A stretch of DNA of 42,145 nucleotides, taken from an uncultured Opitutales bacterium (GTDB lineage Bacteria; Verrucomicrobiota; Verrucomicrobiia; Opitutales; UBA9783). The DNA is taken from NCBI GenBank assembly GCA_944389435.1, contig CALXMI010000037.1:1-42145 (forward strand). Reading direction: 5' to 3'. Positions 7,528 through 23,898 of this stretch are shown here, in pieces (position 1 is the stretch's first letter; every line of letters starts with the position of its first letter). Under the pieces are notes generated by a model that saw only the letters and a program-made list of their open reading frames with translations, did no database searches and had not been told where the DNA came from. Position numbers and translations under genes: made by a program.

Positions 7528-7573
7528 CTATTTGAATGACGACGCTATGCGTCTTATTAAAGGAGGCAAATCA

Positions 7574-8476: not shown

Positions 8477-8502
8477 TGCTAATTTGAAAGGACAAATCAA
8501 TC

Positions 8503-9120
8503 ATGAAGAAAGAAAACAAAATACTGTACCTTTTTGTAATAGGAATTATTACAGCCCTTGCTATCATTTCCGGCATCTTTGTCGGTATAAGTGATATTCT
8601 CGTAAACAACAGATACAGCTTTGTCACAATCATTTTTGCTGCCGCAACCGCCGCAGTATGCTGTATTGTCGGCTACCGCGACAGCCGCCTTAATGCTTCA
8701 TATTTTAAGCAGTATACCGATGCCTCGGAAGAAGCGGGCAAATACAAAGAGCGTATGATGAAGGTTGCAGAAGAACGGGATTCGCTTAAATCACAGCTTG
8801 AATACTACACCTCCGGCACTGTTAAGGAGGAATACGAAAGGCTTAAAAGCAAATGTGAAGCCATCGAAGCCTTCCGCAACAGCTTTCCGTATAAAATCGC
8901 AGACGGATATATTCTTTATAACATTATGAGAACTAACCTGCAGGTCGGCAAAGCAAGTACCTGGCAGATTGTCGGCGACTTTAACGGAGATTTATGGGAG
9001 TGCAGTATCGTGCGGCCGCATACACAGTCGTATAAGGAACTCCTTACCCTTGTAGCTTCCACCAAAGAACCTAATGAGGTAGGCGCACTTAACCAGAGCG
9101 AAACCTTACTGTGGGAATAA
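8503..9120 (+). CDS. Membrane protein with two N-terminal TM helices and a coiled coil
   Basis: Two hydrophobic stretches followed by a charged helical region. Confidence 0.75.
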   Translation: MKKENKILYLFVIGIITALAIISGIFVGISDILVNNRYSFVTIIFAAATAAVCCIVGYRDSRLNASYFKQYTDASEEAGKYKERMMKVAEERDSLKSQLEYYTSGTVKEEYERLKSKCEAIEAFRNSFPYKIADGYILYNIMRTNLQVGKASTWQIVGDFNGDLWECSIVRPHTQSYKELLTLVASTKEPNEVGALNQSETLLWE

Positions 9121-9133
9121 GGAGTGTGTCAAT

Positions 9134-10951
9134 ATGGAACAAATCACCGCTATGAAAATAACCGGTCTTACTATGACCAATTTCCGTAATCATACCGAAA
9201 CACAGCATTTTGACTTCGGTGATATCAGTTACATAACCGGACACAACGGCACCGGCAAAACGACAATGGCTCACGCTGTTTGCTATGTACTCTACGGGGT
9301 TACATACTACGGCGAGCAAAAAATCGAAAGATTAATGAATGAAAGCGCAGACAGTGTAAGCGTGCAGCTTCATTTCATCGACCAAAACGGAGCCGCCCAC
9401 ACCCTTATACGCACAAGAAAAAACGAGAAATATTCCTTGCTTATGGACGGATATACCGTAAGCCAAGGCGGGGTCGAGCAGATGTTTGGTGATAAAAACA
9501 CCTTTATATCAATGTTTAATCCCACATATCTTGTTGAGAATATGGGCAATGACGGCAGAGAACTTATCCTGCGCCATATTAAGCCTGTTTCTAAAAAAGA
9601 TGTCCTGAAGGCTATCCCTACACATCAGTCAATACTTGAAAATGTGGATTTTGAAACACAATCCCCGGAGGACGCTCTTAAAGAAACCCGTGCGGCAATT
9701 CGCAGGGTTGAACAACAGATGGATATACTTCAAGGACACATTGAGCAGATTGAGGAAGCCCGAAAAACCGCCGAAGTTAAACTCGGTGAGTTGTATTCCG
9801 AAAAGCGTACCGTTGAAGATCAAATCAAAACATTTAAGGCAAAACAGTTTGACGGTATTGATACCGATGATTTTGCTATTCAACGTGATATATTAACTCG
9901 GAAACTCAGCGAAAATTCCGGCGAGGATCCCGCTGTAACCGCCGTAAAGGAAAGGTTGGCAGGTGCAAAAGCCCGCGTATATTCCTCAAAATTCACTCAG
10001 CCGCTTGCCGAAGCGTCCGCCGAGTACAATTCCTTGGTCAAGCAGTATAACGGACTTAAAGAGCGTATAACAGCCCTTAAAGTCGGTGATACCTGTCCTA
10101 CCTGTATGACGCAGGTGACGGAATCCAATATTGAGGAAATGCGAACATACCTTATTTCTGAGTGCAGCCGTATCGGCGAGCTTGGAAAATCCGTCGTTGC
10201 ACGCGGCAAGGAAATCTCAGAGCTTGACAAAAAAGCGAAGGAACAGTTTGAACAGTGGAAAGCGGAGGATATTGCAAAATTCGCCGCCGAGCTTGAAGAA
10301 CTGCAAAACGGTGCCGAGCGTGTAGATACCGTCGAAATTCGTTCAAAACTTGAGTCGCTCACCGAGCTTGAGAAATACGGTAATCTTTCCGAAGAAGAAT
10401 TTTCCGAGCTTCGCGACCTTGAGGCAACGCTGATCGGTATCAATGCACAAATCGAAACCGTGGAACAATCTGCAAGTGAAGAAAAGCTGAAATCAGCTAT
10501 CGTAGAAAAGGATGTATTCACTGAGCAAATAAAAAAGTACAAAGATACGGTTACTGCTATTACAGAATACATCTTTAAGCGTGCAGAGCTTGCGACGGCA
10601 GGGCTTGATATGCCTAATGTCAAGATCCGTCTTTTCGATATTGTAAGAGGAACAGGCGAACTGAAAAGTGCCTTTAAGTTCGACTATAAAGGGCGCGAAT
10701 ACACAACATTATCTCTTTCCGAAAAGACATTGGCGGGTATTGAAATCTCTGCAATGATTCGCAGAATAACAGGCAAGGATTATCCCATTTGCATCGACAA
10801 TACCGAAAGTATTGCCGCGTTTAATGATGTGGATATGCCTTCCCAGGTTCTGCTTATCCGTGTTGTCAAGGGGCAGCCGCTTACGGTCAAGTTCCAAAAC
10901 AACTACACTTCAGCCGTTCCCGCCGGTGAAGAAACACGAAAGGCAGCCTGA
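9134..10951 (+). CDS. Rad50/SbcC-like SMC-type ABC-ATPase
   Basis: Walker A GHNGTGKT, coiled coil with central CPTC zinc hook, signature LSLSE, Walker B ICIDNTES. Confidence 0.85.
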   Translation: MEQITAMKITGLTMTNFRNHTETQHFDFGDISYITGHNGTGKTTMAHAVCYVLYGVTYYGEQKIERLMNESADSVSVQLHFIDQNGAAHTLIRTRKNEKYSLLMDGYTVSQGGVEQMFGDKNTFISMFNPTYLVENMGNDGRELILRHIKPVSKKDVLKAIPTHQSILENVDFETQSPEDALKETRAAIRRVEQQMDILQGHIEQIEEARKTAEVKLGELYSEKRTVEDQIKTFKAKQFDGIDTDDFAIQRDILTRKLSENSGEDPAVTAVKERLAGAKARVYSSKFTQPLAEASAEYNSLVKQYNGLKERITALKVGDTCPTCMTQVTESNIEEMRTYLISECSRIGELGKSVVARGKEISELDKKAKEQFEQWKAEDIAKFAAELEELQNGAERVDTVEIRSKLESLTELEKYGNLSEEEFSELRDLEATLIGINAQIETVEQSASEEKLKSAIVEKDVFTEQIKKYKDTVTAITEYIFKRAELATAGLDMPNVKIRLFDIVRGTGELKSAFKFDYKGREYTTLSLSEKTLAGIEISAMIRRITGKDYPICIDNTESIAAFNDVDMPSQVLLIRVVKGQPLTVKFQNNYTSAVPAGEETRKAA

Positions 10952-10954
10952 TAA

Positions 10955-12097
10955 ATGGGTATTACTAACTACATTTCCATAGATGTAGTTGATGCTGCGG
11001 TACTCTGCAATTTGGACATCAAGCAATCAACCGTCACTCGCGAAGAGGTTCAAGCAAGGTGTCCTTTTTGCGGGGACTACAAGTACCGTATGTATCTCAG
11101 TCATCGCATGGATAACGCTACCTACTGGTGTCACAACTGCGGCGCTACCGGGAATGCGGTTACACTCTATGCGGCTTTTAACCCGGAAGGACGCAGGCTA
11201 TCCAACGCCGAGGCATATCACGAGCTGCTCCGTCATCCTAATGTACGCTGTGATGAAATGCCTGTCGAGACGAAGGATTATAAAGCTTTGCCGATCAGAC
11301 CGTTGCACGAACGCAGTCAGATTTATCTTACCTTTTTAAGTTTGCTCGATTTAGAGGAAAAGCACTACCGCAATCTACTTAGTCGTGGACTTTCCAAAGA
11401 AATCATTGCAGGAAATATGTATAGGAGTATTCCTACCGATCCTGTCAAACGGAGAAAGGTGTTAAACGAGCTGTCGCAGCGGTTTGACCTTTCAGGTATT
11501 CCCGGTTTTTTTACTAAAAACAACAAATGGCAAATGGCGAACTGCCGCTACAGCGGTATTCTGATTCCTGTATGTGATATGGATAATCAGGTACAGGGCT
11601 TACAGATTCGGTTTGATGATCCGCCGCCTAAAATCATTCAAAACCAAGACGGTACCAAACTTAAGAAAAAAGGCGAACGTTTCCGTTGGTTTTCTACGGG
11701 CGGCGAGTATTATCAAAACGGCACAGGAATATCCAGTTATATTCATGTTGTCGGAGACACAAATTGCGATACATTACATCTCACAGAAGGACCGATGAAA
11801 GCGGATATTGCAAGTTTTTTGTCTGAGGGCGAGCTTTTTATTGGGCTTACCGGAGTACAGAATGTGCGGTATCTGGCAGAGGTTGTGAAGAAGCTCCATC
11901 CAAAGCGGATTGTCGAGTGCATTGATATGGATGTTCGCACTAACCCCCATGTTCAGAAGGCACAGTCTAAAATACGCTCTATCTGTATGCCTCTTTGCGA
12001 GGATTATCGGACATTTACCTGGCCGATCGAACAGAAAGGTATTGACGATTGGCTGTTGTTTGAAAAACTCAAGCGCGAACACGGGCTAATACCATAA
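10955..12097 (+). CDS. DNA primase-like protein (zinc finger plus Toprim/DUF3854-like domain)
   Basis: CPFC...CHNC zinc finger, LTEGPMKAD, DMD, KGIDD. Confidence 0.8.
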   Translation: MGITNYISIDVVDAAVLCNLDIKQSTVTREEVQARCPFCGDYKYRMYLSHRMDNATYWCHNCGATGNAVTLYAAFNPEGRRLSNAEAYHELLRHPNVRCDEMPVETKDYKALPIRPLHERSQIYLTFLSLLDLEEKHYRNLLSRGLSKEIIAGNMYRSIPTDPVKRRKVLNELSQRFDLSGIPGFFTKNNKWQMANCRYSGILIPVCDMDNQVQGLQIRFDDPPPKIIQNQDGTKLKKKGERFRWFSTGGEYYQNGTGISSYIHVVGDTNCDTLHLTEGPMKADIASFLSEGELFIGLTGVQNVRYLAEVVKKLHPKRIVECIDMDVRTNPHVQKAQSKIRSICMPLCEDYRTFTWPIEQKGIDDWLLFEKLKREHGLIP

Positions 12098-12128: not shown

Positions 12129-13103
12129 ATGAAAAACATGGAAAGCCTAATGGCGGTTCACCAAAATTCCGAGGGCATAATCGGGAAGTTTTTCTACTAC
12201 TCAACCTCAAGTATTTTAATTCCTAAGACCAAATTCATCGAGATAGGACAGGCATACGGTTTGCCGAAATTCAAGCCAGCAAAAGAATCAAGAGCTAGTG
12301 CCTACCGTTGTGCGACAACGGCATTAAAAGACCGCGTTACCGTGAAAGGCAGCGACGGTACATCGCATATCTACCGCATTTACTGCAGAGACAATAAAAA
12401 AGAAGATGCCAAGTACATCACCAGAGAGCTTGTCAAGGAGACCCTTAATTCCCGAACAAATGAATACAAAAAGCTTGCTAACATCTGCTTTGACAAGGAA
12501 AACGAAATTGTTATTGTCGAAAATGAAGTTTATGATTCAGATGTGGATGTTCGTGATTATTGTTTGAAAGCCGAGGAGCTATATGAGCGTTACTGTAACT
12601 GCTATACCTCCGATCAGGTAGATTCGGTTATTGACGATATGCTGTGTCGTATGCAGGCAAACAGCATCAGCATCAAAGGTAATCTCTTCTTTATTCCCAA
12701 GCAGTATTTATCTTTGCTGAACTTATTGGAAGATTATATCGAATCTTTAAGCAGAGAAAACCTTAATACTAATCTGGTTCACAGCAACAGTATGTTTGTG
12801 GTTGACGATGAAAGACAGCGTCAGAAAATGACCGATGAATTTTACGCCAACTATAAACGGGATATTGAATTTTACCAAGAGCGTATTCAGCATTTTATTG
12901 ACAACGGTTGCGATTCTCAGGCTGTTATCCAGCGTTGGATGCAGAAAATCAATGCCCTGCAGATGAAAAAGCAGACCTACGAGGAAATCTTACAGCGTCA
13001 GCTTGATGATCTGAACAGTGATTATGCAATGCTTCAGATGCAAGGTCAGGAATTAGCCGTTCGTAATGTTAAAGGGCAAACCCAACTCAACATAGCTGCT
13101 TAA
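12129..13103 (+). CDS. Conserved ICE protein (DUF6744-like)
   Basis: Long ORF with RBS gaaagga; family assignment from memory only. Confidence 0.6.
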   Translation: MKNMESLMAVHQNSEGIIGKFFYYSTSSILIPKTKFIEIGQAYGLPKFKPAKESRASAYRCATTALKDRVTVKGSDGTSHIYRIYCRDNKKEDAKYITRELVKETLNSRTNEYKKLANICFDKENEIVIVENEVYDSDVDVRDYCLKAEELYERYCNCYTSDQVDSVIDDMLCRMQANSISIKGNLFFIPKQYLSLLNLLEDYIESLSRENLNTNLVHSNSMFVVDDERQRQKMTDEFYANYKRDIEFYQERIQHFIDNGCDSQAVIQRWMQKINALQMKKQTYEEILQRQLDDLNSDYAMLQMQGQELAVRNVKGQTQLNIAA

Positions 13104-13115
13104 TGAGGTATGGTA

Positions 13116-13289
13116 ATGGAAAAAGAATATATCGTTACCATAACCGAAGTTTTACAGCGAAAGGTTACTGTAAAAGCCGAAAGCAAAGGCGATGCAGAAT
13201 ATATCGTTGAGAAGCAGTATTATAACCAAGAGCATATACTTAACGAAAGCGACCTTACAGTACAATCCTTCAAAGCAAAAGCAGCGTAA
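13116..13289 (+). CDS. DpnD/PcfM-like small protein, 57 aa (not in ORF track)
   Basis: MEKEYIVTITEVLQRKVTVKAESKGDAEYIVEKQYYNQEHILNESDLTVQSFKAKAA; RBS gaggt. Confidence 0.8.
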   Translation: MEKEYIVTITEVLQRKVTVKAESKGDAEYIVEKQYYNQEHILNESDLTVQSFKAKAA

Positions 13290-13297
13290 AACAAAAA

Positions 13298-13346
13298 GAG
13301 GTTGTTGCAGGTGATTTTCTTACTTGCGGCAACCTCGGATTTTTTA
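13298..13346 (+). terminator. Intrinsic terminator ending the backbone operon
   Basis: gaggttgttgcaggt...acttgcggcaacctc stem, A run before and T run after. Confidence 0.75.
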
Positions 13347-13478
13347 GGAAATTTATATCCTAAAATCCAACTCTTTTTTAATATTATCAAATCTGAATTT
13401 ATAAAGTATTATATGACCTTACAGTTTAGTATTAAGTTATAACTTGCAATCTCAAGAATAATAATATATTTAATAACA

Positions 13479-14546
13479 TCAAATATAATTATTATCAAAC
13501 CGTTCCCAGTCAATGCCATGGTATAAGAATGTATCCAATGCCGCTCTTTCTTTAAGAAAAGTCGACGGAATCTCATCAATTATGTGCTTTAATATTTCTT
13601 TGTCTTGATTGAATTCATACTTCAAACATAAATTCAACCATTTTTCGGAAACTTGAACACAATCATTATATTTCACTAATGCAGAATTAGCTTCATCGGT
13701 AAGTGCAATTTCCCATTTCTCTATTATATATTCCATAGATGTTTTTATCATACACCTGTGTTCGTAAAGCTTCTTGGCAGCGCTCGTTAATCCTCTGAAC
13801 CAATCACAAAATTTATCTCCGTTAATCTCGGTTTGAAGAACTTCTTTAAAAGCGTCCAAACAAGCAATACCCATATAATGATAGTGGTGGTAACCATAAT
13901 CTCCTATTTCTTTTGGATGATGAATAATACATATCTTACCATCTAATTCTTTCCTAATTTTCAAATATGATTCAAAGGCACAATTATCCGGTTTATAGGT
14001 AGGATTCAGTTTCATTGCTGTGGCAGGATATTGAAAATTTATAGACAGTTCCATACCACGAAACGGTCTGTCTAAATAGTATTTTTTTATGTCTTCTATC
14101 GTGGCTTCTATATGTGAATAATCAATACATATGGTACGAAAGCCTCTTTCTGCAAGCCCCACAGAAATCAACTGCCCTTTACTATCGTCAAATCCGTAAA
14201 ATAGAACCTCATGATAATGATCTTCATTTATATATGGCTTAATATACATTATAATATAATATCCGCTTTTTAAGTTATCCTTTAAAGTATCTACTATATT
14301 GGGACTATTCATATCAAAGACTTTCAAAGGTTTTCTTTGCAAAATTTCTTCATGATATGACGGCGGATACATATTCATTTCTCCAAAATGAAAATTTCCG
14401 GCATCCGAATATAAATTATAATGTGAAGCTATCCAGTCCCTGTAATATTGCGATGTTTTTATAATAGCCAATCTATTGTATATCCAGCAATCTGTTACGG
14501 AATCAACATCTTCTATATGTATGGGTAGCTTTAATATCTCTTTCAT
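13479..14546 (-). CDS. Hypothetical protein, possible papain-like (BtrH/C39-like) hydrolase
   Basis: N-terminal DCW and HEVLFYGFDD motifs fit a Cys-His-Asp arrangement. Confidence 0.5.
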   Translation of the reverse strand: MKEILKLPIHIEDVDSVTDCWIYNRLAIIKTSQYYRDWIASHYNLYSDAGNFHFGEMNMYPPSYHEEILQRKPLKVFDMNSPNIVDTLKDNLKSGYYIIMYIKPYINEDHYHEVLFYGFDDSKGQLISVGLAERGFRTICIDYSHIEATIEDIKKYYLDRPFRGMELSINFQYPATAMKLNPTYKPDNCAFESYLKIRKELDGKICIIHHPKEIGDYGYHHYHYMGIACLDAFKEVLQTEINGDKFCDWFRGLTSAAKKLYEHRCMIKTSMEYIIEKWEIALTDEANSALVKYNDCVQVSEKWLNLCLKYEFNQDKEILKHIIDEIPSTFLKERAALDTFLYHGIDWERFDNNYI

Positions 14547-14899
14547 TTAATTCTGTCCTTTATTCATAATTTTTAAATTTATGTCATTGCAAGACATTCG
14601 AAGACGAAATAATAAATATTATTTATGACTTGATTTTTATATTGCGTTGCATTTTTCGATAATTGTTTTTATATAAATATGTTTAGTGCTAGAAATTCTA
14701 TTTGTTTTTCGCTTATTACAACATTACTTAAAACGATAAATAGCTGAGTCCTTATGAATAAGTGACAATTTGAGCTCGGTAGTATGAGAAAATAACGTGT
14801 TTGTAGTTTTGCACCATATTGAGCATTAGAAGTTTTTACGAAGCAAAAATGAAAGATTGTGCGCAACAAGAGCAACAAAAAAGTCAGATAAAAGTGAAG

Positions 14900-15100
14900 T
14901 TAGTAAGTGCGAAATATTTTATTATTTTCTCCAAAAGTGAAATTGTATAATTTCGCATCTACAAAAAGACTGTAATGCGAAGCTATCCAATCTCTATAAT
15001 AGGGCGAATTTTTAGCTATAGTCAATCTGTTATATGTCCAACATTCTGTAACAGATTCTATATCATCAAATTTTAACGGCAACTCAAATGGATTAATCAC
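14900..15100 (-). pseudogene. Truncated paralogue of 13479-14546
   Basis: ELPLKFDDIESVTECWTYNRLTIAKNSPYYRDWIASHYSL aligns with KLPIHIEDVDSVTDCWIYNRLAIIKTSQYYRDWIASHYNL; GTG start with GGAG RBS; stops after 66 codons. Confidence 0.8.
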
Positions 15101-15464
15101 TATAAAACTCCTTTGTTGATAAAAATAAATCCGACATGCAAATGTATTGGTTTGAGACTTCTGGAACATAGTAATTTTTTACAAAGAAAAGCTCTCTTGC
15201 TGTTTTATTGACAAATATTTCTGCGGGATACGTTTTAAGCTAGAAATGTTTGCTGTTTTCTCCAAAGGCGACTTATATAATTTTTTATCTGCATATTCTG
15301 TAACGATTTATTCGTTGCTCATGCTTATTTGTGATTGTTGTTTATTTGTTATTTATAGCATCCTAAAATACAACTATTGTCAACATGCTGCCTATGTATA
15401 GCTCAACATGTCTTGAATACAGATGGCAATCATATTTTTATATCGAAGTGAGTACATATCCTCA

Positions 15465-15881
15465 TCACTTTAACAAACTAAATGATTTCGTGATTTGTTT
15501 AATTTGTAGTTCTTCACCAAATATTGCTATACCTATAGGATTAAGATCAAATAGACAACTTTCGGTAATTGTTTTTTTATATACATCAAATTTATTGTTC
15601 AACGCTTGCCCTTCTTCTGTGAATATAACTAAAACAATGTTGTTAGTTTCATTGGTTTTCTTTATCGTTGAACTCAATTTCAACATTTTACTTAGATTTG
15701 TTTTCAATACAATAACATTGCACCTGATTGCACTATGTATAAAATCTGTTTTATCACAAAGTAGGTGCGAATTGTAAATATCATCACAACACTTTGCTAA
15801 TTGCCCCATCAAAATAGACGCTATATTAGCCGACACTCCAGGAGAAAGTTTTTCATTTACAATAATTGCAACCCTATTCAC
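15465..15881 (-). CDS. DUF2000-like protein (PTH2-like fold)
   Basis: VAIIVNEKLSPGVSANIASIL...GIAIFG...ITKSFSLLK pattern; GTG start after ggaggt. Confidence 0.7.
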   Translation of the reverse strand: MNRVAIIVNEKLSPGVSANIASILMGQLAKCCDDIYNSHLLCDKTDFIHSAIRCNVIVLKTNLSKMLKLSSTIKKTNETNNIVLVIFTEEGQALNNKFDVYKKTITESCLFDLNPIGIAIFGEELQIKQITKSFSLLK

Positions 15882-16434
15882 AAAAACACCTCCCTGATTT
15901 ATTTGCAAAACATACCCAAGGCATTATTACGCTATTTCTTAATATAGCTATAATATTCAATCCAAAATGCTCTGCACATAGTTTATTTGTTATTGATATG
16001 CAATTTGCATCTTCGTCCTGAATAAGTTCCTTACAGGCTTCTATGTTCGAATTAACATAAACAACATCTAAATTATCAACTTGTATATTTATTTCTCTTA
16101 ATAACGAATTGGTTGCTTGATGAAGATAGATTTTATCTGTTTTATGTAAATTTATGTTAGTGTTTTTGCTAACACAAACCAGAGGAGGAAGAGACTCTAA
16201 GAAAACTTCTGTGGCAATTAATTTGTTATCCATAATAAACTCGCTTATATTTGAGTATGCTGCAGGAACCAATATGCAAGAAAGTTCTTTTCTTTTCAAA
16301 GCGTCGGCAGCCGCCTCAAAAGAGTGATATGGTATAATCTCGGAATTGACATTCCATCTTCTTGCTATATACATGGAACAAGTCAAAGAACCAGAAGAGT
16401 CTCCTAGTGTACCAACTTTACATTTACGGGTCAT
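15874..16434 (-). CDS. BacA-like prephenate decarboxylase (bacilysin/anticapsin BacA family)
   Basis: GTLG, SFE, LVPAAY, NS, ITN...GL and IMPWVCF match BacA motifs TLG, TFE, VPHAY, NS, LTN...GL and IPMSWSLF as I recall them. Confidence 0.65.
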   Translation of the reverse strand: MTRKCKVGTLGDSSGSLTCSMYIARRWNVNSEIIPYHSFEAAADALKRKELSCILVPAAYSNISEFIMDNKLIATEVFLESLPPLVCVSKNTNINLHKTDKIYLHQATNSLLREINIQVDNLDVVYVNSNIEACKELIQDEDANCISITNKLCAEHFGLNIIAILRNSVIMPWVCFANKSGRCFCE

Positions 16435-17138
16435 TTTGCATCCTCCGTGAAACTGTTTATACAAGCTCTTCGTTCATTTGTTATAGTCAAATTATATTGT
16501 ATAGGGCTATCAAAACAATCCGCATCAACCAATGTTGTGTGAAACTCACCATTTTCACCGAATGGATCTATTCCGATAGATTTAAAGTGCTGATATGCTA
16601 ATCGATCATATTTTTCCCCAAGCCACTTTGTATCTATGGATGGATGGTTAATTGTAGTAATTATACTTTTAATTTTTCTGTTTTCTAGTTCCGTTATCAA
16701 ATCGTCATACGGAACTAGATACAAAGGGAAACATGGAATCATGCCGGCACTCTTACATAATTTGACTTGTATTATTATATTATCTAATGAATTCAAGTCA
16801 CCAAAAACGACATATTTTACTCCTTGCCGGCAGAAATCTCTGTATAACTTCGTGATTTTATCCCAACGCACCCACCATTTGTAATTAACATATATTATTG
16901 GGATGCGAAGTTTTTGAGCTTGTATATCTATTAAGCTTTGTTTTTGCTCATGAAACAACGATTCATTTTTATCGCTATCTAAACAATGGATTAAACTAAC
17001 AGCTTTACCAACCTCTAATGCTTTGGAAAGAGCAAGGCCAGAATCTTTTCCTCCACTGTACATAAAAACGAACGATTCATTTGTCGGTAAATTTCTATAT
17101 GATAAAAGATTTTCTTTATCAATGACAGTATAGTTCAA
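16431..17138 (-). CDS. Diphthine-ammonia ligase-like PP-loop ATPase (MJ0570/Dph6 family)
   Basis: YSGGKDS, VFGD, WLG, DPFGENGEFHT. Confidence 0.85.
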   Translation of the reverse strand: MNYTVIDKENLLSYRNLPTNESFVFMYSGGKDSGLALSKALEVGKAVSLIHCLDSDKNESLFHEQKQSLIDIQAQKLRIPIIYVNYKWWVRWDKITKLYRDFCRQGVKYVVFGDLNSLDNIIIQVKLCKSAGMIPCFPLYLVPYDDLITELENRKIKSIITTINHPSIDTKWLGEKYDRLAYQHFKSIGIDPFGENGEFHTTLVDADCFDSPIQYNLTITNERRACINSFTEDAK

Positions 17139-17166
17139 TAATTTACACCTCTTATCTGTTTAATAT

Positions 17167-18945
17167 TTATCTATAATTCTCTGCTTGCTTACTAAACATC
17201 TCATAGTATTTGCCTCGTAGAGAGATCAACTCATCATGTGTGCCAACTTCTTTGACCCCCCCATCACCTATCAAATAAATTCTATCAGCGTTTCTAATAG
17301 TAGAAAGGCGGTGTGCAATGATAATAGTTGTCGATAAATTGCTACTGTCGAAAATAAGTTTTGTCATCTCATATTCTGCAATGGGATCCAATGCAGCTGA
17401 AGGCTCATCAAATATTAATAGTCCAAAATCCCCAGATAAAAGTCTTGCGATCCCAATCTTTTGAATTTCTCCTCCGGATAACATAATTCCGCCTTCATCA
17501 AATTCTTTCGTTACATTAGTGTGAATGCTTGCATTGTTTTTGATTAAAACATTTTTAAGATCCGCTCGCATTATAATATCGTGAACTTTTTTTTCGTCGG
17601 AATTATCATATATACACAGATTATCGGCAAAGGACATTGCATAAACATTTGTGTTTTGAAAAGCTACACCTATTCTTCGTCTCAAATCATTTATATCGTA
17701 GTTACGTATATCAACATCATTTATACATATGCTTCCTTTGTTAACATCATAAAACCGCATTAATAACTTAACTATTGTTGATTTTCCTACTCCATTTTCA
17801 CCTACTATAGCAATTTTTTCACCAGGATTGATTTTTAAATTTAAGTGATTTATTCGGAAATTTGAATTTTGATAATTAAAGGAGATATTGTTAAACGAAA
17901 TTTTAAATGCGCCCGTTGGAGCCATAATACCGGCATTTTTTTCTGTTTCTATGTAAGATTTCAGGTCGAAAAAATTTTTAATTCTTTTCGCATACATACT
18001 TAGACGATTTGCGTCTTTAACATAATAAAACATTTCATTTAACGCATTTTTTAAAGTTTCTACTGCTACCATCATAGTTATGTAAGAACCCACTGTTGCA
18101 ATATTTCCGGTATAAATACCATGCGCAATATTTAGAATAACGAATGTTCGCGCAATGTAAAACGTGAAGGTTCCTGTCAAAGCCCACGGAATCATTTTAA
18201 AAGCGAATTTCTTTATAACATTGATTTTCCCATCTTGGGCAGCATTGTATCCTGCGAACAGATAATCTTTTATATTGGTGCTTTTTAAATCTGCGGCATA
18301 GTTATTAGTATAGAAAACTCTATGATAATAATTCAGTTTTCTATCATATGGAATTATCTCCGTATCTTTTTTCACATCATAATAGTTTGTTAATATATGC
18401 ATTATATTCTCAACGATAGTCCCGATTATGGTGACAATCACAGCGATGGGACTTAATGTCGCAATAATAGAAAGCATTGAGATAATGGTTATAATGGAAG
18501 ACACCATTCGATTAACCATGTTTTGAGCATCGGCAGCTTTGGTTGCATACTCACTAACGGCCCATGTGTAACTATCGAAATACTCTGGATCATCAATATA
18601 TCTGTAATCCGTATTTATTGCCTTACGATAAGCGTTAAATTTCAACTGTGCATCAATCTGTGGTAACATTCTATTTTTGCAGAACATATTAAAAATATCT
18701 TCATAAACGGGCTGAAACATCAAAATTAACTGCATTAATATCACAATTAAACATATATCTTTAAAGGAATATCCCCCCTGTAACATATTGATAATTGTGC
18801 TCGGTAGATAGACCCCCACTAATTGAGCAATAGGTATTATTATTCCCCAAAAAAACAAAGAAAAAACTACAAACATTTTTCCATATTTCCAATATGGTTT
18901 GTATAGCCATGCTATATTCTTAATTGATTTAATTATTGTTTTCAC
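17167..18945 (-). CDS. ABC exporter (TMD plus NBD)
   Basis: TM helices, GENGVGKS, LSGGE, DEP, AHRLST. Confidence 0.93.
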   Translation of the reverse strand: MKTIIKSIKNIAWLYKPYWKYGKMFVVFSLFFWGIIIPIAQLVGVYLPSTIINMLQGGYSFKDICLIVILMQLILMFQPVYEDIFNMFCKNRMLPQIDAQLKFNAYRKAINTDYRYIDDPEYFDSYTWAVSEYATKAADAQNMVNRMVSSIITIISMLSIIATLSPIAVIVTIIGTIVENIMHILTNYYDVKKDTEIIPYDRKLNYYHRVFYTNNYAADLKSTNIKDYLFAGYNAAQDGKINVIKKFAFKMIPWALTGTFTFYIARTFVILNIAHGIYTGNIATVGSYITMMVAVETLKNALNEMFYYVKDANRLSMYAKRIKNFFDLKSYIETEKNAGIMAPTGAFKISFNNISFNYQNSNFRINHLNLKINPGEKIAIVGENGVGKSTIVKLLMRFYDVNKGSICINDVDIRNYDINDLRRRIGVAFQNTNVYAMSFADNLCIYDNSDEKKVHDIIMRADLKNVLIKNNASIHTNVTKEFDEGGIMLSGGEIQKIGIARLLSGDFGLLIFDEPSAALDPIAEYEMTKLIFDSSNLSTTIIIAHRLSTIRNADRIYLIGDGGVKEVGTHDELISLRGKYYEMFSKQAENYR

Positions 18946-19786
18946 TTTCTGTCATTCCTTGGTAAAATAAAAAATTAGTAATCGCTATAAAATTATTCGT
19001 ATTACGGTAAGCAACTTCATAAACTTTTGTGTTTTTTAGAAGATTGTTTATATCTTGAAATAGCGTACACATATCTTTAGAATGTCTTACATTATTGATA
19101 ATTGTTTTAAAAGCTTCACTTTTATCTAGTTTGCGTACGAAATCATTTTCGTTGTTGTACTTAGGCAATATTACTACGTCTATATTGTGCACACTAGGAC
19201 TTGTCTTTGGGGGATAATAAATTGTTCGCATTGTTTCTCCATCAAAAGTCTCACCCACCATATTGCTTTCCATCAATTGATCAACATTTTCTCTCACGGA
19301 AATAGGCATATTAAATCCGATATACTTACTTTTAGAAATATAAACGCAATCGTCGTCTATGTATTCTGCGTGCAAAACCAACGACAAATAGCTTGTTAAT
19401 GTTGTTTTACCGGATTTTCTTTCTCCTATCAATAAAATATTTTTATTGTTTAATCTCACACAAGAACCATGAATAATTGTACAATTCAAAATATTTGCAT
19501 ACCAATCTTCTAAAGCCCCAATTAATTGAAAAGCAAAGTGCTTGTCAATTGCATTGCAAAAAATACGATAGGGTGCTTTGTCGATGCATTTTTTGAAGGT
19601 GTTTCCAGAAACTATTTCTAACGCAATATCATTATCCGTGCTTTCATTTTTTGTATCTAAAAAAGTTTTTTTATAAGTGGAAAGCAAAGTTTCAAACAAA
19701 CCAACATTTTTCAAATAAAGGTTTTTGTCTATATGTAGTTTTAATGTAGTGTCATTAATGGTCCGCTTAAAATAAAGCACGATCAT
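18929..19786 (-). CDS. HPr kinase-like P-loop kinase
   Basis: IHGSCV, GERKSGKTT, YIDDD. Confidence 0.75.
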   Translation of the reverse strand: MIVLYFKRTINDTTLKLHIDKNLYLKNVGLFETLLSTYKKTFLDTKNESTDNDIALEIVSGNTFKKCIDKAPYRIFCNAIDKHFAFQLIGALEDWYANILNCTIIHGSCVRLNNKNILLIGERKSGKTTLTSYLSLVLHAEYIDDDCVYISKSKYIGFNMPISVRENVDQLMESNMVGETFDGETMRTIYYPPKTSPSVHNIDVVILPKYNNENDFVRKLDKSEAFKTIINNVRHSKDMCTLFQDINNLLKNTKVYEVAYRNTNNFIAITNFLFYQGMTESENNN

Positions 19787-19798
19787 TCTCCTTATCTT

Positions 19799-20098
19799 TT
19801 AAACGTATTCTTTGATTAGTTCTTCGCAACAGAACTCTTTCAAAATTTTATTTACATCATCAAGCAAGCTTATATTTGTTTTTTGCGGTGCATATGTGGA
19901 TATAATTTTTTCACAAATATATTGGCTGCTGATATCTAAATTTTGTTCATTTGCCTCATTAAGAATATTCCAAATAAAAGAAGCGGATTGATTTAAAGAA
20001 ATTATACGCTTGCGTTGCTTGTCGTATGCAACAATCTCGTTCTCTATATTTTCTATTTCAAGTTTCGTTAATATCATTTCTTTGCCGTTAATTTTCAT
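19799..20098 (-). CDS. PqqD family RiPP recognition element (RRE)
   Basis: IVAYD...IISLNQSASFIWNIL...DDVNKILKEF...LI; about 100 aa, next to a radical SAM gene. Confidence 0.85.
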   Translation of the reverse strand: MKINGKEMILTKLEIENIENEIVAYDKQRKRIISLNQSASFIWNILNEANEQNLDISSQYICEKIISTYAPQKTNISLLDDVNKILKEFCCEELIKEYV

Positions 20099-20108
20099 AA
20101 TTATACTC

Positions 20109-21461
20109 CTAATTGCTTGTTAATTTATAAACAGAATTTTTTCCAAAAAGAACGTTGTCGACTAATTCAGCTTTCCAACCAAAGCATGTATTTCCACAAA
20201 GAATCTCGGTAAATACATACGACCAGTACTTTCGAATTAATTGACACTCATAATCCCTGTATTTTGTATCAAAGGCATTGTCTCTCACAACCTTTAGCGG
20301 ACAGCCGCCTTTGCAAAAACGATACGCTATACATCCTCTGCACTCATCAAAAGAATTCTTCACCACATCTAAATGTTGATCGGTATAGCTGTTATAAAAA
20401 TCCACCATATTGTCTTTTATTTCGGCAACGATGGTTTTGAACTGCTCGGCCTCAATACAGTTGATAATTTTTCTATCTGGCATCAGCCAAAAACATTCTG
20501 CAAATGTAGCTCCGCAACAGTATTCTGCAATAGTATTATTAAATATCGGTGTAGAAATATATAACTTGTAATTCTTTTCCTTTGCGTAGTTATGTAAGTT
20601 CACATAATGGTGAAAGAAATCGTATTTTTCTATGTTGTATTGATCTTTGTTGCCGTTTTTTAATGCACGCCCAGACGGAATTATTGGCATAATGCTCCAC
20701 TCGTTTATACCAGAACTGTTGTTTGCAATGTTATCACAAATTTGCTTGAGGTTTTCAAAGTTTTCATACCAAACAGTTGATCTTACCGTTAGTGAGCGTC
20801 CGCTTTGGCTAAAGTCTTGAAGAGTTTTTTCGACGACTGGAGATGAATTTGTTGTGTCAGAACATTTTCTGTTTCTGTTTTGCAAAAAAGATGTTCCATC
20901 ATACGACAACATAATTTTGTCAAAATGTTTAATTATAAATTTTCTCTGAGAGTTATTAAGCATTCCATTTGTCGTTAATTCAAAATAATAAGGCACAGAG
21001 CAGTTATCACAAAGATTTTTTATGGCACGTATTGACTCTTTAAACAACTCCCAATTAAATGTAGGCTCACCACCTCCCGTGAAAAAGAATCGCAAAGGTT
21101 CAGAATCATCGTTCTTATCAATAAATTGATATATTTTCCTCTTTTTAATTGCTTCTTTAACAAAAACGAGAATATCTTTCACTGACAGTAAGTCCTGATT
21201 TCCGCTGGTTGAAGAATAACTACAGTAATTACACCTTAATTGACAATTGTATGTCAAACATATACCAATCAAATTTATTGGCTTGTTTTTGGCAGACATT
21301 TTTGTTTTATCTAATTTATCTAAACAACTTTTTAATTCTTCATAATTATCAGTTTTTCTACAAATAGTATTTATTTCGGTTATTACGCTTTGTGCTGCGT
21401 CTTTGGGATAAAATATCAGTCTTTCCGAGTCGAAAATATAATTGCCTATATAGTGGTACAT
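20109..21461 (-). CDS. Radical SAM/SPASM peptide maturase 1
   Basis: CQLRCNYC, GGGEP, TTNG, SYDG; SPASM cysteines CCGA...NC...CRGCIAYRFCKGGCP...EC; ATG 21461 after ggagg. Confidence 0.9.
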   Translation of the reverse strand: MYHYIGNYIFDSERLIFYPKDAAQSVITEINTICRKTDNYEELKSCLDKLDKTKMSAKNKPINLIGICLTYNCQLRCNYCSYSSTSGNQDLLSVKDILVFVKEAIKKRKIYQFIDKNDDSEPLRFFFTGGGEPTFNWELFKESIRAIKNLCDNCSVPYYFELTTNGMLNNSQRKFIIKHFDKIMLSYDGTSFLQNRNRKCSDTTNSSPVVEKTLQDFSQSGRSLTVRSTVWYENFENLKQICDNIANNSSGINEWSIMPIIPSGRALKNGNKDQYNIEKYDFFHHYVNLHNYAKEKNYKLYISTPIFNNTIAEYCCGATFAECFWLMPDRKIINCIEAEQFKTIVAEIKDNMVDFYNSYTDQHLDVVKNSFDECRGCIAYRFCKGGCPLKVVRDNAFDTKYRDYECQLIRKYWSYVFTEILCGNTCFGWKAELVDNVLFGKNSVYKLTSN

Positions 21462-21480
21462 AAACGCATCTTCCTCCAAA

Positions 21481-21512
21481 TAGATGGTGTAAATAGTTCT
21501 AGACACCATTTA
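21481..21512 (-). promoter_or_regulatory. Hairpin between precursor P1 and the radical SAM RBS
   Basis: TAAATGGTGT/ACACCATCTA stem (one mismatch) with a 12-nt loop. Confidence 0.6.
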
Positions 21513-21535
21513 TATATATATTTCTTATGATAGCA

Positions 21536-21640
21536 CTATGAGTTCGTCTTGCCGGTAGGACAACACGATGCAGCGCGAGCCTCAATAGCACGAAGTTCTT
21601 CTTCGTCATACACTACGATAGCAGGTGTTTCGTATACCAT
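21536..21640 (-). CDS. Putative RiPP precursor peptide P1, 34 aa (not in ORF track)
   Basis: MVYETPAIVVYDEEELRAIEARAASCCPTGKTNS; RBS agaggaggg; YxxP leader motif; first gene of the rSAM/RRE operon. Confidence 0.88.
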   Translation of the reverse strand: MVYETPAIVVYDEEELRAIEARAASCCPTGKTNS

Positions 21641-21786
21641 AATTTCCCTCCTCTCTCATTCATTCTAATATGTTTTTGGTTCGCTAGAACTATTTACTGA
21701 GTTTAAACGATAAATAATACCGAGTTACAATCCATTAGCAAAATCCGTGCATTTTTAAAAACAATTGTAAGTTTGTTCCGTATCAG

Positions 21787-21815
21787 ATTATAATATAACA
21801 GTTTATATTTGTCAA
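21787..21815 (-). promoter_or_regulatory. Consensus sigma-A promoter for cluster 1
   Basis: TTGACA (21815-21810), 17-bp spacer, TATAAT (21792-21787). Confidence 0.85.
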
Positions 21816-21960
21816 TATTTCGTTTAGTGATTTTAAAAAATAAAATAAAAAAACGTCAAATTGTAGCCATTTTGTAGATAATCTCTTGATTTTTGATAGA
21901 ATAAATGTTATTATATTCAAAAAGCATCGTTTGGTTGTTTTAGGTTTTGCTTCTTAACAT

Positions 21961-21997
21961 AGAAAAGGAACCGTCGACCTTACGGCCGACGGTTCCT
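21961..21997 (-). terminator. Intrinsic terminator after P2
   Basis: 11-bp stem aggaaccgtcg/cgacggttcct followed by a short T run on the minus strand. Confidence 0.75.
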
Positions 21998-22009
21998 CAG
22001 AAAATTTTA

Positions 22010-22120
22010 TTATCTGAAATCTCCGGCGAAACATTGTCCGGATCTTGCAGCTGCTTGAATATGTTTTGCCAACTCTTTGGCACTCAATTCTACAACCACA
22101 GGCTTAACCCATTTTTTCAA
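22010..22120 (-). CDS. Putative RiPP precursor peptide P2, 36 aa (not in ORF track)
   Basis: MKKWVKPVVVELSAKELAKHIQAAARSGQCFAGDFR; TTG start overlaps the regulator TGA; RBS aagggggg; double TAA then terminator; leader resembles P1. Confidence 0.82.
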   Translation of the reverse strand: MKKWVKPVVVELSAKELAKHIQAAARSGQCFAGDFR

Positions 22121-23181
22121 CTAAATCCCCCCTTATCTTTATAATATTTTTCTAACATACCGCATAGGGTCTGAAAGTACTGTTTATTAATGCTGTAAAG
22201 AATGGTTCTCCCGCGATTTCGCGTCTTAAGCATACCAGCTTTTATCATTAAAGATAGATGGTAATAAGCATTTGTTCCAGTAAATCCGAATTCTTGCTCC
22301 AAATCTTTTATTGTTATTTCTTCTTTTTCATATATCAAGTTCAAAACCGAAACTCTGTTTGATTCAGAAATTGCGTTTCCGAAATTTTCAAGCTCTGGCA
22401 ATCTAAACTGAACAGTCAAATAATTGATATGTTCAATATAATCAATACCTAATAATATTACAACTTCATTTGAATAATAGTGTGTTTTAACACAATTCTT
22501 ATGATATAAGCAGAACGTGATGTAAATATCGTCAAAACAAGAAAAATCGCCTTTTTGATTTTTCGTTTGCATAAGTTGGTTTAAAACAATATCAAAATCA
22601 AAATTATCTTTAAGTTCACTCAATAATTTATGTTTTGCATCATACTTTTGAGATAACGCAAAACTTTTCTCCATCAACTCATATGACAGTTTGTGGATAA
22701 CCGTTTCAGGCTCTATAAAGAACGAATATAACGCACTTTTAATTTCACCGCTATATGTGGAATTTTTGATGAACTTATTAACATAGGTTATCGAGTCCTT
22801 ACATTTTATGACATCTTCTTCGCGAATATCCTTAAAGTAGAATCTAATAATATTCTCTTTTACCTTTTCGTGATTGGATAATTCTTCTTGCACCATAGAG
22901 AGATTATAATTTTCAAAAACAAAATGTGCTTTATATGGCTCGTAATAATATTTAGTTATTACATTCTTTTTGTCTTCTGTGAAATAGAAAAACAAAAGAA
23001 GCTCATCTGAAATCGGTGAAAATTCATTTAGTATTTTACTGTAATAGTCAGTATCTTCACTTGATTTACTATAGTTTATGAAATTTGTCAGACAATAATC
23101 CTTGTTAAAATTAAAAGCAAATAAGAAAAAAAGGTCGTATATAAAGCCGGGTTCATCAAGAAATTTAATATTTCTCATCAC
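22117..23181 (-). CDS. Transcriptional regulator: large N-terminal domain plus C-terminal ArsR-like wHTH
   Basis: NRVSVLNLI...ITIKDLEQEFGFTGTNAYYHLSLMIKAGML...GRTILYSIN. Confidence 0.85.
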   Translation of the reverse strand: MMRNIKFLDEPGFIYDLFFLFAFNFNKDYCLTNFINYSKSSEDTDYYSKILNEFSPISDELLLFFYFTEDKKNVITKYYYEPYKAHFVFENYNLSMVQEELSNHEKVKENIIRFYFKDIREEDVIKCKDSITYVNKFIKNSTYSGEIKSALYSFFIEPETVIHKLSYELMEKSFALSQKYDAKHKLLSELKDNFDFDIVLNQLMQTKNQKGDFSCFDDIYITFCLYHKNCVKTHYYSNEVVILLGIDYIEHINYLTVQFRLPELENFGNAISESNRVSVLNLIYEKEEITIKDLEQEFGFTGTNAYYHLSLMIKAGMLKTRNRGRTILYSINKQYFQTLCGMLEKYYKDKGGFS

Positions 23182-23203
23182 CGTATCCTCCTTAACTTCG
23201 TTA

Positions 23204-23232
23204 ATTGTAGCACACTTTTTTTATAAAATCAA
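23204..23232 (-). promoter_or_regulatory. Probable promoter of the regulator-P2 operon
   Basis: TTGATT, 17-bp spacer, extended -10 TGcTACAAT. Confidence 0.55.
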
Positions 23233-23300
23233 TTTATTTTTAGTGAACAACTAAAAATATAATAAAACCAATGTTTAAGAAACATACGAAAGGCATAAAT

Positions 23301-23609
23301 ATGATAGGGAAAAAGTTAAAGAGAAGCAGAATATCCGCAGGTTTAACCCAACAGCAGTTGGCAGAAAAAATTGGAATTAGCAGAAGTGCGGTTTCCAAAT
23401 ACGAATGTAACAAGTTGCGACCAAGCCTTAAAGTAAAGGCCAAACTTTGTTTGCGTTTGGATGATTGTGCCGATTTCTTATTAGCCTCCAACTCTCGAAA
23501 GCACGACAAAGTTTCCGTGTCCTCTCAGCCCCTTTCACCCGAAGAAATCAATAATATAGCAGAATTAATTAAAGAATGGACTTCGGAAGAATACCGTCTA
23601 TTTCCCTAA
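23301..23609 (+). CDS. XRE-family HTH regulator
   Basis: LKRSRISAGLTQQQLAEKIGISRSAVSKYE...P. Confidence 0.85.
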   Translation: MIGKKLKRSRISAGLTQQQLAEKIGISRSAVSKYECNKLRPSLKVKAKLCLRLDDCADFLLASNSRKHDKVSVSSQPLSPEEINNIAELIKEWTSEEYRLFP

Positions 23610-23640
23610 CAGAAAAAACAAGAAATATGCATTTTTAGAA

Positions 23641-23859
23641 TTGCAGCAATCATTAAAGAAATCTCTACCCAAAACAGTAACCGAAGCAATAGTTTTTCCT
23701 AACAATAATGCATATTGGATATGCCCAAATTGCAAATGCTCTTTTGAAAGAGAGTACCAATCGTATTGTGACAGATGTGGACAACGATTAAAGTGGATCG
23801 CTTTAAGAAAAGTTAAATATATACTAATAAAACCACCAAATAATAAAAAATATTTTTAG
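23641..23859 (+). CDS. Zinc-ribbon protein (possibly the C-terminal part of the XRE gene via a +1 shift)
   Basis: CPNC...CDRCGQRLKW; no clear RBS; frame open back across the XRE stop. Confidence 0.65.
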   Translation: MQQSLKKSLPKTVTEAIVFPNNNAYWICPNCKCSFEREYQSYCDRCGQRLKWIALRKVKYILIKPPNNKKYF

Positions 23860-23898
23860 TCATTGGCAAATTATAAATCGCAAATCAGGGAGAATATT

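Follow-up and report, generated by a model that had tools for sequence, protein, structure and literature searches.

A PDT-like/DUF2000 gene pair adjoining ATP-dependent ligases of two folds, and its candidate role in a radical SAM peptide operon

The 42,145-nucleotide stretch of DNA analysed here (the window; contig CALXMI010000037.1 of GenBank assembly GCA_944389435.1, assigned to an uncultured Opitutales bacterium) carries on its minus strand an operon for a ribosomally synthesised and post-translationally modified peptide (RiPP), which ends in three overlapping genes encoding a Dph6-like PP-loop enzyme, a short prephenate dehydratase (PDT)-like protein and a DUF2000 protein. Comparison across loci showed that the PDT-like and DUF2000 genes are a conserved two-gene module, and that the genes next to this module include ATP-dependent carboxylate-amine ligases belonging to two unrelated folds. 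The module is probably a prephenate-type biosynthetic pair, and on a narrow balance we favour the Dph6-like enzyme as its ligase. We tentatively propose that the trio is a 'building block plus ligase' cassette within a radical S-adenosylmethionine (rSAM) RiPP operon, in which the pair would make a prephenate-type non-proteinogenic acid and the Dph6-like enzyme would replace the ATP-grasp ligase found elsewhere; that the product of the module is joined to P1, the precursor peptide of the operon, is an inferred step that is possible, though we would not count on it.

The trio starts straight after the gene for a 592-amino-acid (aa) ATP-binding cassette (ABC) exporter. The raw open reading frames (ORFs) span 16431-17138 (235 aa), 15874-16464 (196 aa) and 15465-15908 (147 aa), and the genes themselves are slightly shorter:

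16431..17138, minus strand: Dph6-like PP-loop ATP pyrophosphatase, 235 aa; PF01902 (Diphthami_syn_2), E 8.3e-27, 94.6 bits (cut-off 23.2).
15874..16434, minus strand: PDT-like protein without an ACT domain, 186 aa; PF00800 (PDT), E 8.3e-08, 32.7 bits (cut-off 25.2).
15465..15881, minus strand: DUF2000 protein, 138 aa; PF09391, E 3.2e-16, 59.9 bits (cut-off 25).

The Dph6-like gene begins with a TTG at 17138, 28 nt past the ABC stop codon, with AAGAGGTG upstream. Alignment with five homologues, together with a GGAGGA 6 nt upstream, refined the PDT-like start to the ATG at 16434, which overlaps the Dph6-like stop as ATGA (4 nt), and the DUF2000 start was refined to the GTG at 15881, with AGGGAGGTG upstream and an 8-nt overlap with the end of the PDT-like gene. 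Each of the three genes is preceded by a Shine-Dalgarno (SD)-like sequence, and all three reading frames are intact. The original prediction, made from the sequence alone, had placed three overlapping genes after an ABC exporter at the end of a RiPP operon and had called them BacA-like decarboxylase, Dph6-like amide ligase and DUF2000; both the arrangement and the domain calls were borne out, with all matches above the Pfam cut-offs. Its statement that no BacB-, BacG-, BacF- or BacD-like genes are visible holds as well, as Pfam found no cupin, short-chain dehydrogenase/reductase (SDR), aminotransferase or ATP-grasp domain among the window ORFs of at least 80 aa.

The pairing of the module with a ligase emerged from 11 distinct loci (the window, L002, L009, L011, L012, L013, L014, L016, L017, L019 and L044). 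A DUF2000 gene lies directly downstream of the PDT-like gene in nine of them; it is absent in L014, and the contig of L016 ends at this point. An ATP-dependent ligase adjoins the module in 8 of the 11 loci. In three, the RiPP loci, it is the Dph6-like gene, situated upstream; in five, which lack RiPP genes, it is a divergently transcribed ATP-grasp L-amino-acid ligase accompanied by a major facilitator superfamily (MFS) exporter. These five loci are Bacillaceae-type and come from three soil-type metagenome contigs, the genome G571 and the Priestia aryabhattai plasmid NZ_CP072475.1 (L019, 2097-7010; the others are L011, L012, L013 and L044, the last at ~7000-11000). The annotated order on the plasmid is a pyridoxal phosphate (PLP)-dependent aminotransferase, an MFS transporter and an ATP-grasp protein, followed on the opposite strand by a 'prephenate dehydratase domain-containing protein' and a 'DUF2000 family protein'. 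Four genes are shared between the Priestia plasmid and L012, and because each is 51-59% identical between the two, we conclude that the four cassette genes travel together. The L012 ligase matches the L-amino-acid ligases of PDB entries 4wd3 (E 3.3e-35) and 3vot (E 3.8e-16). A literature search, judged by titles and abstracts, returned nothing relevant on an L-amino-acid ligase with such a module.

The bacilysin genes listed in Table 1 of PMC9147277 include bacA (a prephenate-acting decarboxylase), bacF (aminotransferase), bacD (ligase) and bacE (exporter). The Bacillaceae module has comparable neighbours: an L-amino-acid ligase and an MFS exporter and, on the Priestia plasmid, also an aminotransferase, counterparts of BacD, BacE and BacF. 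By this analogy the ATP-grasp cassette resembles a dipeptide pathway of bacilysin or rhizocticin type, as yet undescribed, in a host that can be cultivated. That one module is paired with ligases of two unrelated folds is the strongest argument for regarding the Dph6-like enzyme as its ligase in the RiPP operon. The original prediction had a prephenate-derived acid ligated to an amine of the P1 core, or the C-terminus amidated; its logic of a building block and an ATP-dependent ligase gains independent support from the five ATP-grasp loci, one of which includes an aminotransferase, while the link to P1, and prephenate as the substrate in this host, stay hypothetical.

Outside the window, the complete trio was found in two other lineages. 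A scan of one genome per prokaryotic species returned one locus, L002, in a metagenome-assembled genome of Acetatifactor (G021), where the order is that of the window (rSAM, PqqD, HprK-like, ABC, Dph6-like, PDT-like, DUF2000; protein identity 39-64%), and where a gene for an S24 peptidase and then one for an NTP_transf_5 nucleotidyltransferase follow downstream of DUF2000. The L002 precursor is a 36-aa homologue of P1 whose last twelve residues, AASCCPTGKTNS, are identical to those of P1; the core is thus the same in both lineages with a visible precursor (2/2), and the trio occurs together with a P1-type precursor. The third lineage, L009, came from a metagenome scan and has the order ABC, Dph6-like, PDT-like, DUF2000, S24, NTP_transf_5. 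In L002 and L009 the trio is flanked by the ABC gene upstream and by the S24 peptidase and NTP_transf_5 genes downstream, with overlaps or tiny gaps, a placement which argues that it belongs inside the RiPP operon. The original prediction named common occurrence of the trio without RiPP genes as evidence against it, and this is half the case: the PDT-like/DUF2000 pair does occur without RiPP genes, but the complete trio was observed solely in RiPP operons (3/3 lineages). Among 401 Acetatifactor-family genomes, G021 alone was matched by the PDT-like profile, and likewise by the rSAM protein; the cassette arrangement is conserved yet rare. The metagenome scan was run with a 9-row PDT-like alignment, so that the loci recovered are biased towards closer relatives, and duplicates were dropped (L008, a low-coverage chimeric contig equal to L002 in the relevant genes; L010, equal to L009; L015, equal to L014; and L041, equal to L044).

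The PF00800 match of the PDT-like protein covers residues 35-173 of the raw ORF, and Pfam detected no ACT domain. Among 1.84 billion cluster representatives, 174 relatives were found at E<=0.001, nearly all of them 175-230 aa long and hence ACT-less. In two distant relatives, P0123 and P0133 (the latter from Cellulosilyticum ruminicola), the PDT domain is fused to Cupin_2, which we take to be a BacA-plus-BacB architecture. In an alignment that included four canonical dehydratases of the same order, the ENS of the canonical enzymes corresponds to P.AY in the ACT-less proteins, and their TRF to M-[PSGA]-W; P.AY is present in 110 of 128 full-length hits, and TRF in 4 of 128. Across 50 family members, ~25 positions are conserved at 90% or more, many of them polar (T, C, S, E, H, N) and common to the cupin-fused group, and the group of the window protein has motifs of its own (TLGD...LTCS, FIMD, H.AT and MPW).

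A quick maximum-likelihood tree of 71 rows, comprising 67 ACT-less and four canonical PDT proteins and no authentic BacA row, split the ACT-less from the canonical rows with a Shimodaira-Hasegawa-like approximate likelihood ratio (SH-aLRT) support of 100. The RiPP-linked rows form a clade (SH-aLRT 99) and join the ligase-linked rows (90) within a clade of 25 rows (84), and the cupin-linked 'TLGP' rows make up another clade of 28 rows (92). The ESM Atlas model is nearest to short PDT-fold clusters, one of which is a 207-aa Bacillota cluster auto-named 'Prephenate decarboxylase' (TM 0.84), and no NCBIfam model singles out BacA-like proteins among 38 family members. With the non-aromatizing prephenate decarboxylases of BacA/AerD/SalX type (BacA being that of the bacilysin pathway) the protein shares a short PDT catalytic domain without ACT (bacA, which acts on prephenate, is given as 204 aa in Table 1 of PMC9147277, against 186 aa here); with the ACT-less set and its PDT-Cupin_2 fusions, taken as stand-ins for BacA, it shares the replacement of ENS by P.AY and of TRF by M.W; it differs in its separate clade and own motifs, in having DUF2000 rather than a cupin as partner, and in the lack of BacC- or BacG-like genes. 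On these comparisons we assign the PDT-like protein as BacA-like in architecture and shared derived motifs, within a sister group that has its own motifs. The ACT-less form agrees with the proposed BacA membership; the grouping points both ways, being far from canonical PDT and with the ACT-less set that includes the PDT-cupin fusions, but in a clade apart from the cupin-linked one; and the partner, DUF2000 in place of a cupin, does not agree.

In the window, the DUF2000 match extends over positions 2-133 of the 133-position profile. None of 14 control genomes had a match to the family, against 11 of 351 in a phylum sample, ten of them above the cut-off, and among those 11 genomes a PDT-like neighbour is present in G021 and G571 only. 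The other DUF2000 genes, which are nearer to the Pfam model, adjoin EamA exporters (3), an MFS exporter (1), GNAT acetyltransferases (3) and AraC or MarR regulators, contexts suggestive of detoxification or of the handling of small molecules. The PDT-linked and the other DUF2000 proteins have conserved Asn, Asp and His positions in common. A 7-member DUF2000 profile gave a weak match to PDB 2gax (Atu0240; E 0.28), and the fold is presumably peptidyl-tRNA-hydrolase-II-like. A literature search found no published work on DUF2000. In the proposed cassette the protein would perform the step after decarboxylation, standing in for the cupin BacB, or else would serve in producer protection. As a separate observation, the PDT-like gene of L016 (3965-5488) lies head to head with a gene for a YbaK-like aminoacyl-tRNA editing domain protein (PF04073, E 1.6e-6), on a contig that stops 125 bases past the PDT-like gene, so that DUF2000 could still follow; this neighbour hints at a possible part for DUF2000 in tRNA editing but was kept out of the evidence.

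The Dph6-like protein aligns over its full length to MJ0570 (PDB 3rjz, E 6.5e-11) and PH1257 (2d13, E 5.7e-9), N-type ATP pyrophosphatases with which it shares the PP-loop SGGKDS and the GE.GEF.T motif. Against TIGR03679, the Dph6 equivalog (named 'diphthine--ammonia ligase' in NCBIfam), its score is 80 bits, short of the 197.3 cut-off. As judged by these scores it is a PF01902 member and not a Dph6 orthologue, and the earlier assignment to the Dph6 family applies at the level of PF01902 and its SGGKDS motif but not at that of the equivalog. It differs from Dph6/MJ0570 also in being bacterial, without a diphthamide pathway (to our knowledge, bacteria have no EF-2 diphthamide), and in being encoded in a RiPP operon. 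The chemistry of PF01902/Dph6 enzymes is the ATP-dependent amidation of a protein-borne carboxylate, and the window protein is a candidate carboxylate-amine ligase or amidase. Homologues at E<=1e-8 were present in 10 of the 401 Acetatifactor-family genomes, the best outside G021 (42% identity) being in genome G359, where no PDT-like gene lies nearby. A Priestia megaterium plasmid carries a Dph6-like gene alone, in an uninformative context, and a literature search found nothing on PF01902 in RiPPs.

The operon that the trio closes comprises the following genes upstream of it:

21536..21640, minus strand: P1 precursor, 34 aa, MVYETPAIVVYDEEELRAIEARAASCCPTGKTNS; ORF with GAGAGGAGG upstream.
20109..21509, minus strand: radical SAM/SPASM peptide maturase, 466 aa; PF04055, E 9.9e-10; SPASM TIGR04085, 30.2 bits (cut-off 27).
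19799..20098, minus strand: PqqD-like peptide chaperone (RiPP recognition element, RRE), 99 aa; PF05402, E 1.1e-5, 26.1 bits (cut-off 23.4).
18929..19786, minus strand: HPr-kinase-related P-loop protein, 285 aa; TIGR04352 (HprK_rel_A), E 8.6e-6, 25.1 bits (cut-off 200), a resemblance only; 41% identity to its L002 counterpart.
17167..18945, minus strand: ABC exporter with fused permease and ATPase, 592 aa; PF00005, E 1.6e-27; 64% identity to L002 and 61% to L010.

A short precursor, an rSAM protein with SPASM domain and a PqqD-type chaperone thus stand together in one operon, as is characteristic of radical-SAM/SPASM RiPP operons, and with the HprK-like and ABC genes they bear out the claim that the trio lies at the end of one. 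The nearest NCBIfam models of the maturase are the PapB, CcpM and SCIFF maturases, every one under its cut-off; against the PapB-type ranthipeptide model NF047865 it reaches 86.6 bits with a cut-off of 340, a resemblance only. Pfam detected no peptidase domain in the ABC exporter. In the P1 core the single carboxylate is the C-terminus, and the amines are those of Lys and of the N-terminus left after leader removal; the core ends in a Ser that is invariant in the window and L002, and this Ser is the likely target of the HprK-like protein.

The gene anatomy, families, synteny and module-ligase pairing are observed; from them we infer a substrate, a reaction for each step and an involvement of P1, as follows. 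The most likely reaction of the PDT-like protein would be the conversion of prephenate, or of a closely related cyclohexadienyl compound such as arogenate, to a keto or amino acid that is not aromatic. The Dph6-like enzyme would adenylate a carboxylate and form an amide, taking the place of the ATP-grasp L-amino-acid ligase of the Bacillaceae loci. The likeliest acceptor in the RiPP operon would be the P1 peptide with its core AASCCPTGKTNS, at the C-terminal carboxylate or at the Lys or N-terminal amine; by analogy we favour the C-terminus over the Lys and the N-terminus, because Dph6 acts on a protein-borne carboxylate. In its most specific form, which we regard as doubtful, the product would be a 'Trojan-horse' RiPP, in which a prephenate-derived non-aromatic amino-acid warhead, made by the BacA-like and DUF2000 proteins, is added by the Dph6-type ligase to rSAM-crosslinked P1, most plausibly at its C-terminus, and Bacillaceae would deliver the same warhead as a dipeptide by means of a RizA/BacD-like ligase.

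Several observations weigh against this proposal. Because the PDT-like/DUF2000 pair is found without RiPP genes in at least five loci, it needs no peptide acceptor. The Dph6-like enzyme type is not tied to peptides either and is used in other specialised pathways, since the G359 homologue sits in a small-molecule-looking cluster (see below). Also, the window PDT-like protein falls outside the cupin-linked clade, with cupin-fused proteins having stood in for BacA in that comparison, and Pfam found no cupin near the PDT-like gene in the window, L002 or L009. Further, the rSAM family is broad (103 clusters at E<=1e-30, with 11 at >=50% identity besides one 100%-identical cluster), and the PDT-like protein gave 5 clusters in the same kind of search; as the rSAM family is so much wider than the trio, the trio is probably dispensable for the core RiPP chemistry and an optional tailoring add-on at most. 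Finally, no aminotransferase, cupin or reductase was detected by Pfam in the window, L002 or L009, so that a route from the keto acid to a ligatable amine is not locally encoded.

The supply of prephenate adds to these difficulties. Chorismate synthase and the chorismate mutase families CM_2 and CM_1 (PF01264, PF01817 and PF07736) were not found in the bin that contains the window (G000, 0.95 Mb, 87.6% complete), and they are likewise absent from G001 (95% complete) and G002 (96%) of the same genus and from G008 (95%) of the same family, with chorismate synthase and CM_2 being present in a control genome of the same order. None of 12 same-family genomes gave a match to canonical PDT. If the bin assignment is correct, the assigned host would have no prephenate, given that chorismate synthase, chorismate mutase and canonical PDT were not found. 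The family to which G000 belongs (G001-G012) has genomes of 0.7-1.3 Mb that are 91-96% complete (G003, 71%); together with these gene absences, this suggests a reduced, aromatic-amino-acid-auxotrophic lineage. The Acetatifactor genome G021 has both chorismate synthase and canonical PDT, and prephenate should therefore be available there. The bin assignment of the window, complete contig C37, is weak and its true host doubtful, because RepA_N, a TraG/VirD4-type coupling protein, a resolvase and DUF3854, all identified by Pfam, mark the contig as a conjugative element, its backbone is a tetranucleotide outlier within the bin, and its RepA was matched in 0 of 20 relatives.

Among the alternatives, the one that survives best is that the trio is a self-contained small-molecule pathway, yielding an amide or dipeptide-like antimetabolite, which is merely co-transcribed and perhaps co-exported with the RiPP genes and does nothing on P1. 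We consider this rather unlikely, even though the pair stands alone with its own ligase and exporter in the five loci without RiPP genes, the 42% identical Dph6-like homologue of G359 has non-RiPP surroundings, its cluster including genes for a carrier protein, a carbamoyltransferase, a kinase and a glycosyltransferase, and Pfam detected no PqqD/RRE leader-binding domain in any of the trio proteins. Such a pathway would not lead one to expect the trio between RiPP genes in 2 of 3 lineages, joined by overlaps or tiny gaps, nor the confinement of the full trio to RiPP operons (3/3 lineages), and neither a second exporter nor an aminotransferase lies beside the trio in L002 and L009. The G359 cluster itself (L030, C48:1-18000) is large and lies on one strand, with genes for an ABC transporter, a metallo-beta-lactamase-fold protein with a carrier domain, two PHP proteins, an HD protein, a carbamoyltransferase, an rSAM enzyme, an APH-type kinase, NTP_transf_5, a HAD hydrolase, GrpB and a glycosyltransferase, and by its gene content looks like an uncharacterised small-molecule-type pathway.

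Alternatively, the Dph6-like enzyme could amidate the C-terminal carboxylate of P1 with ammonia, the PDT-like and DUF2000 proteins having a separate role such as producer protection or an unrelated metabolite. ATP-dependent amidation of a protein-borne carboxylate is the sole assigned function of PF01902, the P1 core ends in an invariant Ser with its C-terminus as the only carboxylate, and other DUF2000 genes occur in contexts like small-molecule handling or detoxification; direct amidation nevertheless leaves the tight conserved coupling of pair and ligase (8/11 loci) unexplained, and we judge it improbable.

The cassette might also be idle cargo of a conjugative element in this host, a recently transferred and partly reduced operon without substrate. 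Bases ~13,000-27,000 of the contig form an island of 30-36% GC within a backbone of 41-46% GC, and the P1 operon sits in this island (~32% versus ~44% for the backbone); with the whole contig being mobile-element DNA and the bin lacking the chorismate branch, idle cargo would fit. The S24 peptidase and NTP_transf_5 genes that close the operon in L002 and L009 are moreover missing here, their place being occupied by a variable gene and a fragment:

13479-14546, minus strand: gene of unassigned family, 355 aa; no family match even at E 0.5.
14900-15169, minus strand: 89-aa fragment, paralogous to the N-terminus of the 355-aa gene.

Against idle cargo stand the three intact frames with good SD-like sequences, the conservation of the operon on a contig of another run and the weak bin assignment, and we consider this explanation quite improbable. 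The stretch 14415-23500 was found with 30 differences on a single 26.7-kb contig of run X1, on which the operon is 99.7% identical and, unlike the operon, the stretch 13000-15460 is diverged or replaced; 20 runs from 11 studies carry 14415-23500 or part of it. The match in X1 and the presence in runs of 11 studies establish that the operon is genuine DNA in circulation. Contigs of run X20, possibly RNA, cover the operon in parts only and are uninformative on expression, and no RNA run is listed among those carrying the complete operon, which says nothing on expression. A terminal overlap was looked for on the contig and none was found, so that a circular form is without support, and no match to the rSAM protein was returned from plasmids.

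That the PDT-like protein is a mere ligand-binding domain, with a periplasmic-binding-protein-like fold and no catalysis, is highly improbable, as the low Pfam score (32.7 bits) and the missing TRF motif, whose Thr is essential in canonical prephenate dehydratases, are countered by an active-site-like pattern in the ~25 highly conserved, often polar positions shared with the cupin-fused group.

Known systems resemble the proposed cassette in part. In pheganomycin biosynthesis, as described in PMC8939145, a non-proteinogenic amino acid is attached by the ligase PGM1 to a core peptide of ribosomal origin, and such hybrids have in common with our proposal an ATP-dependent ligase, a separately made non-proteinogenic amino acid and a ribosomal core peptide. 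PGM1 is, however, of the ATP-grasp type and uses a building block made by a type III polyketide route, whereas here a putative PP-loop ligase would use a shikimate-branch block in a ligation that is hypothetical. The operon also shares its HprK-related, PqqD and rSAM/SPASM genes with cassettes of this kind and with lasso peptide tailoring by kinases or nucleotidyltransferases, its relatives adding NTP_transf_5 and P1 ending in Ser; it differs from these in not being a lasso system, in its NCBIfam score of 25.1 against a cut-off of 200, and in the trio, which has no counterpart there. A literature search found nothing on ranthipeptides with HPr kinase.

If the proposal is correct, DUF2000 would for the first time be placed in a functional setting, as the constant companion of a BacA-like enzyme, and Bacillaceae would have a new antimetabolite-type cassette of aminotransferase, MFS exporter, L-amino-acid ligase, PDT-like and DUF2000 genes, testable in cultivable Priestia. 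RiPP tailoring would in turn be extended by shikimate-branch building blocks and a PP-loop (Dph6-family) ligase fold, amounting to a shikimate-RiPP hybrid class. Even without attachment to P1, the pattern of a module with an interchangeable ligase is a useful handle for genome mining.

Upstream of P1 lie three further features:

22117..23181, minus strand: regulator, 354 aa, with a C-terminal ArsR/SmtB-type helix-turn-helix (HTH) domain at residues ~267-338, upstream of the operon; NCBIfam NF033788, E 5.2e-12, 45.4 bits (below the cut-off of 55); Pfam HTH_20, E 2.5e-4.
22010..22120, minus strand: 36-aa precursor-like peptide from the ORF list, MKKWVKPVVVELSAKELAKHIQAAARSGQCFAGDFR; P1-like leader; a terminator then follows.
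21787..21815, minus strand: promoter-like site TTGACA-17-TATAAT upstream of P1; 12/12 consensus matches.

The 36-aa peptide has the leader K-P-V-V-V-E-L...A-A-A as in P1 and a core with C-F-A-G-D, in C-x3-D spacing, and is a possible second precursor; a terminator-like hairpin lies after its gene, at 21998-21965. The promoter-like site is a consensus match only, the total of such sites in the region being equal to that in shuffled sequence. Before the RiPP operon of L002 (3622-4473) are genes for a LytTR response regulator, a GHKL histidine kinase and AgrB together with a 53-aa AgrD-like ORF, which suggests that the operon is under quorum-sensing control there; the window has the ArsR-type regulator in this place instead.

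The remainder of the contig (1-13100 and 30000-42145) contains further element genes, namely those for a Rad52-like protein, a DUF6094 methyltransferase and DUF6744, as well as candidate defence genes (ThiF plus Prok-E2_D, and a 1132-aa NACHT protein at 32271-35669). Also encoded are a 395-aa protein whose N-terminus is a carrier (PP-binding) domain (30014-31201) and an NTP_transf_5 protein (31564-32247). Lastly, a second, divergent RiPP-type cluster on the plus strand (23863-30000) encodes an HprK-related protein, an S24 peptidase-PqqD fusion, a 348-aa rSAM/SPASM protein and two ABC exporters. The S24 part of the fusion is 39-40% identical to the stand-alone S24 peptidases that close the P1-type operon in L002 and L009, and the S24-PqqD protein may serve both clusters in the window.

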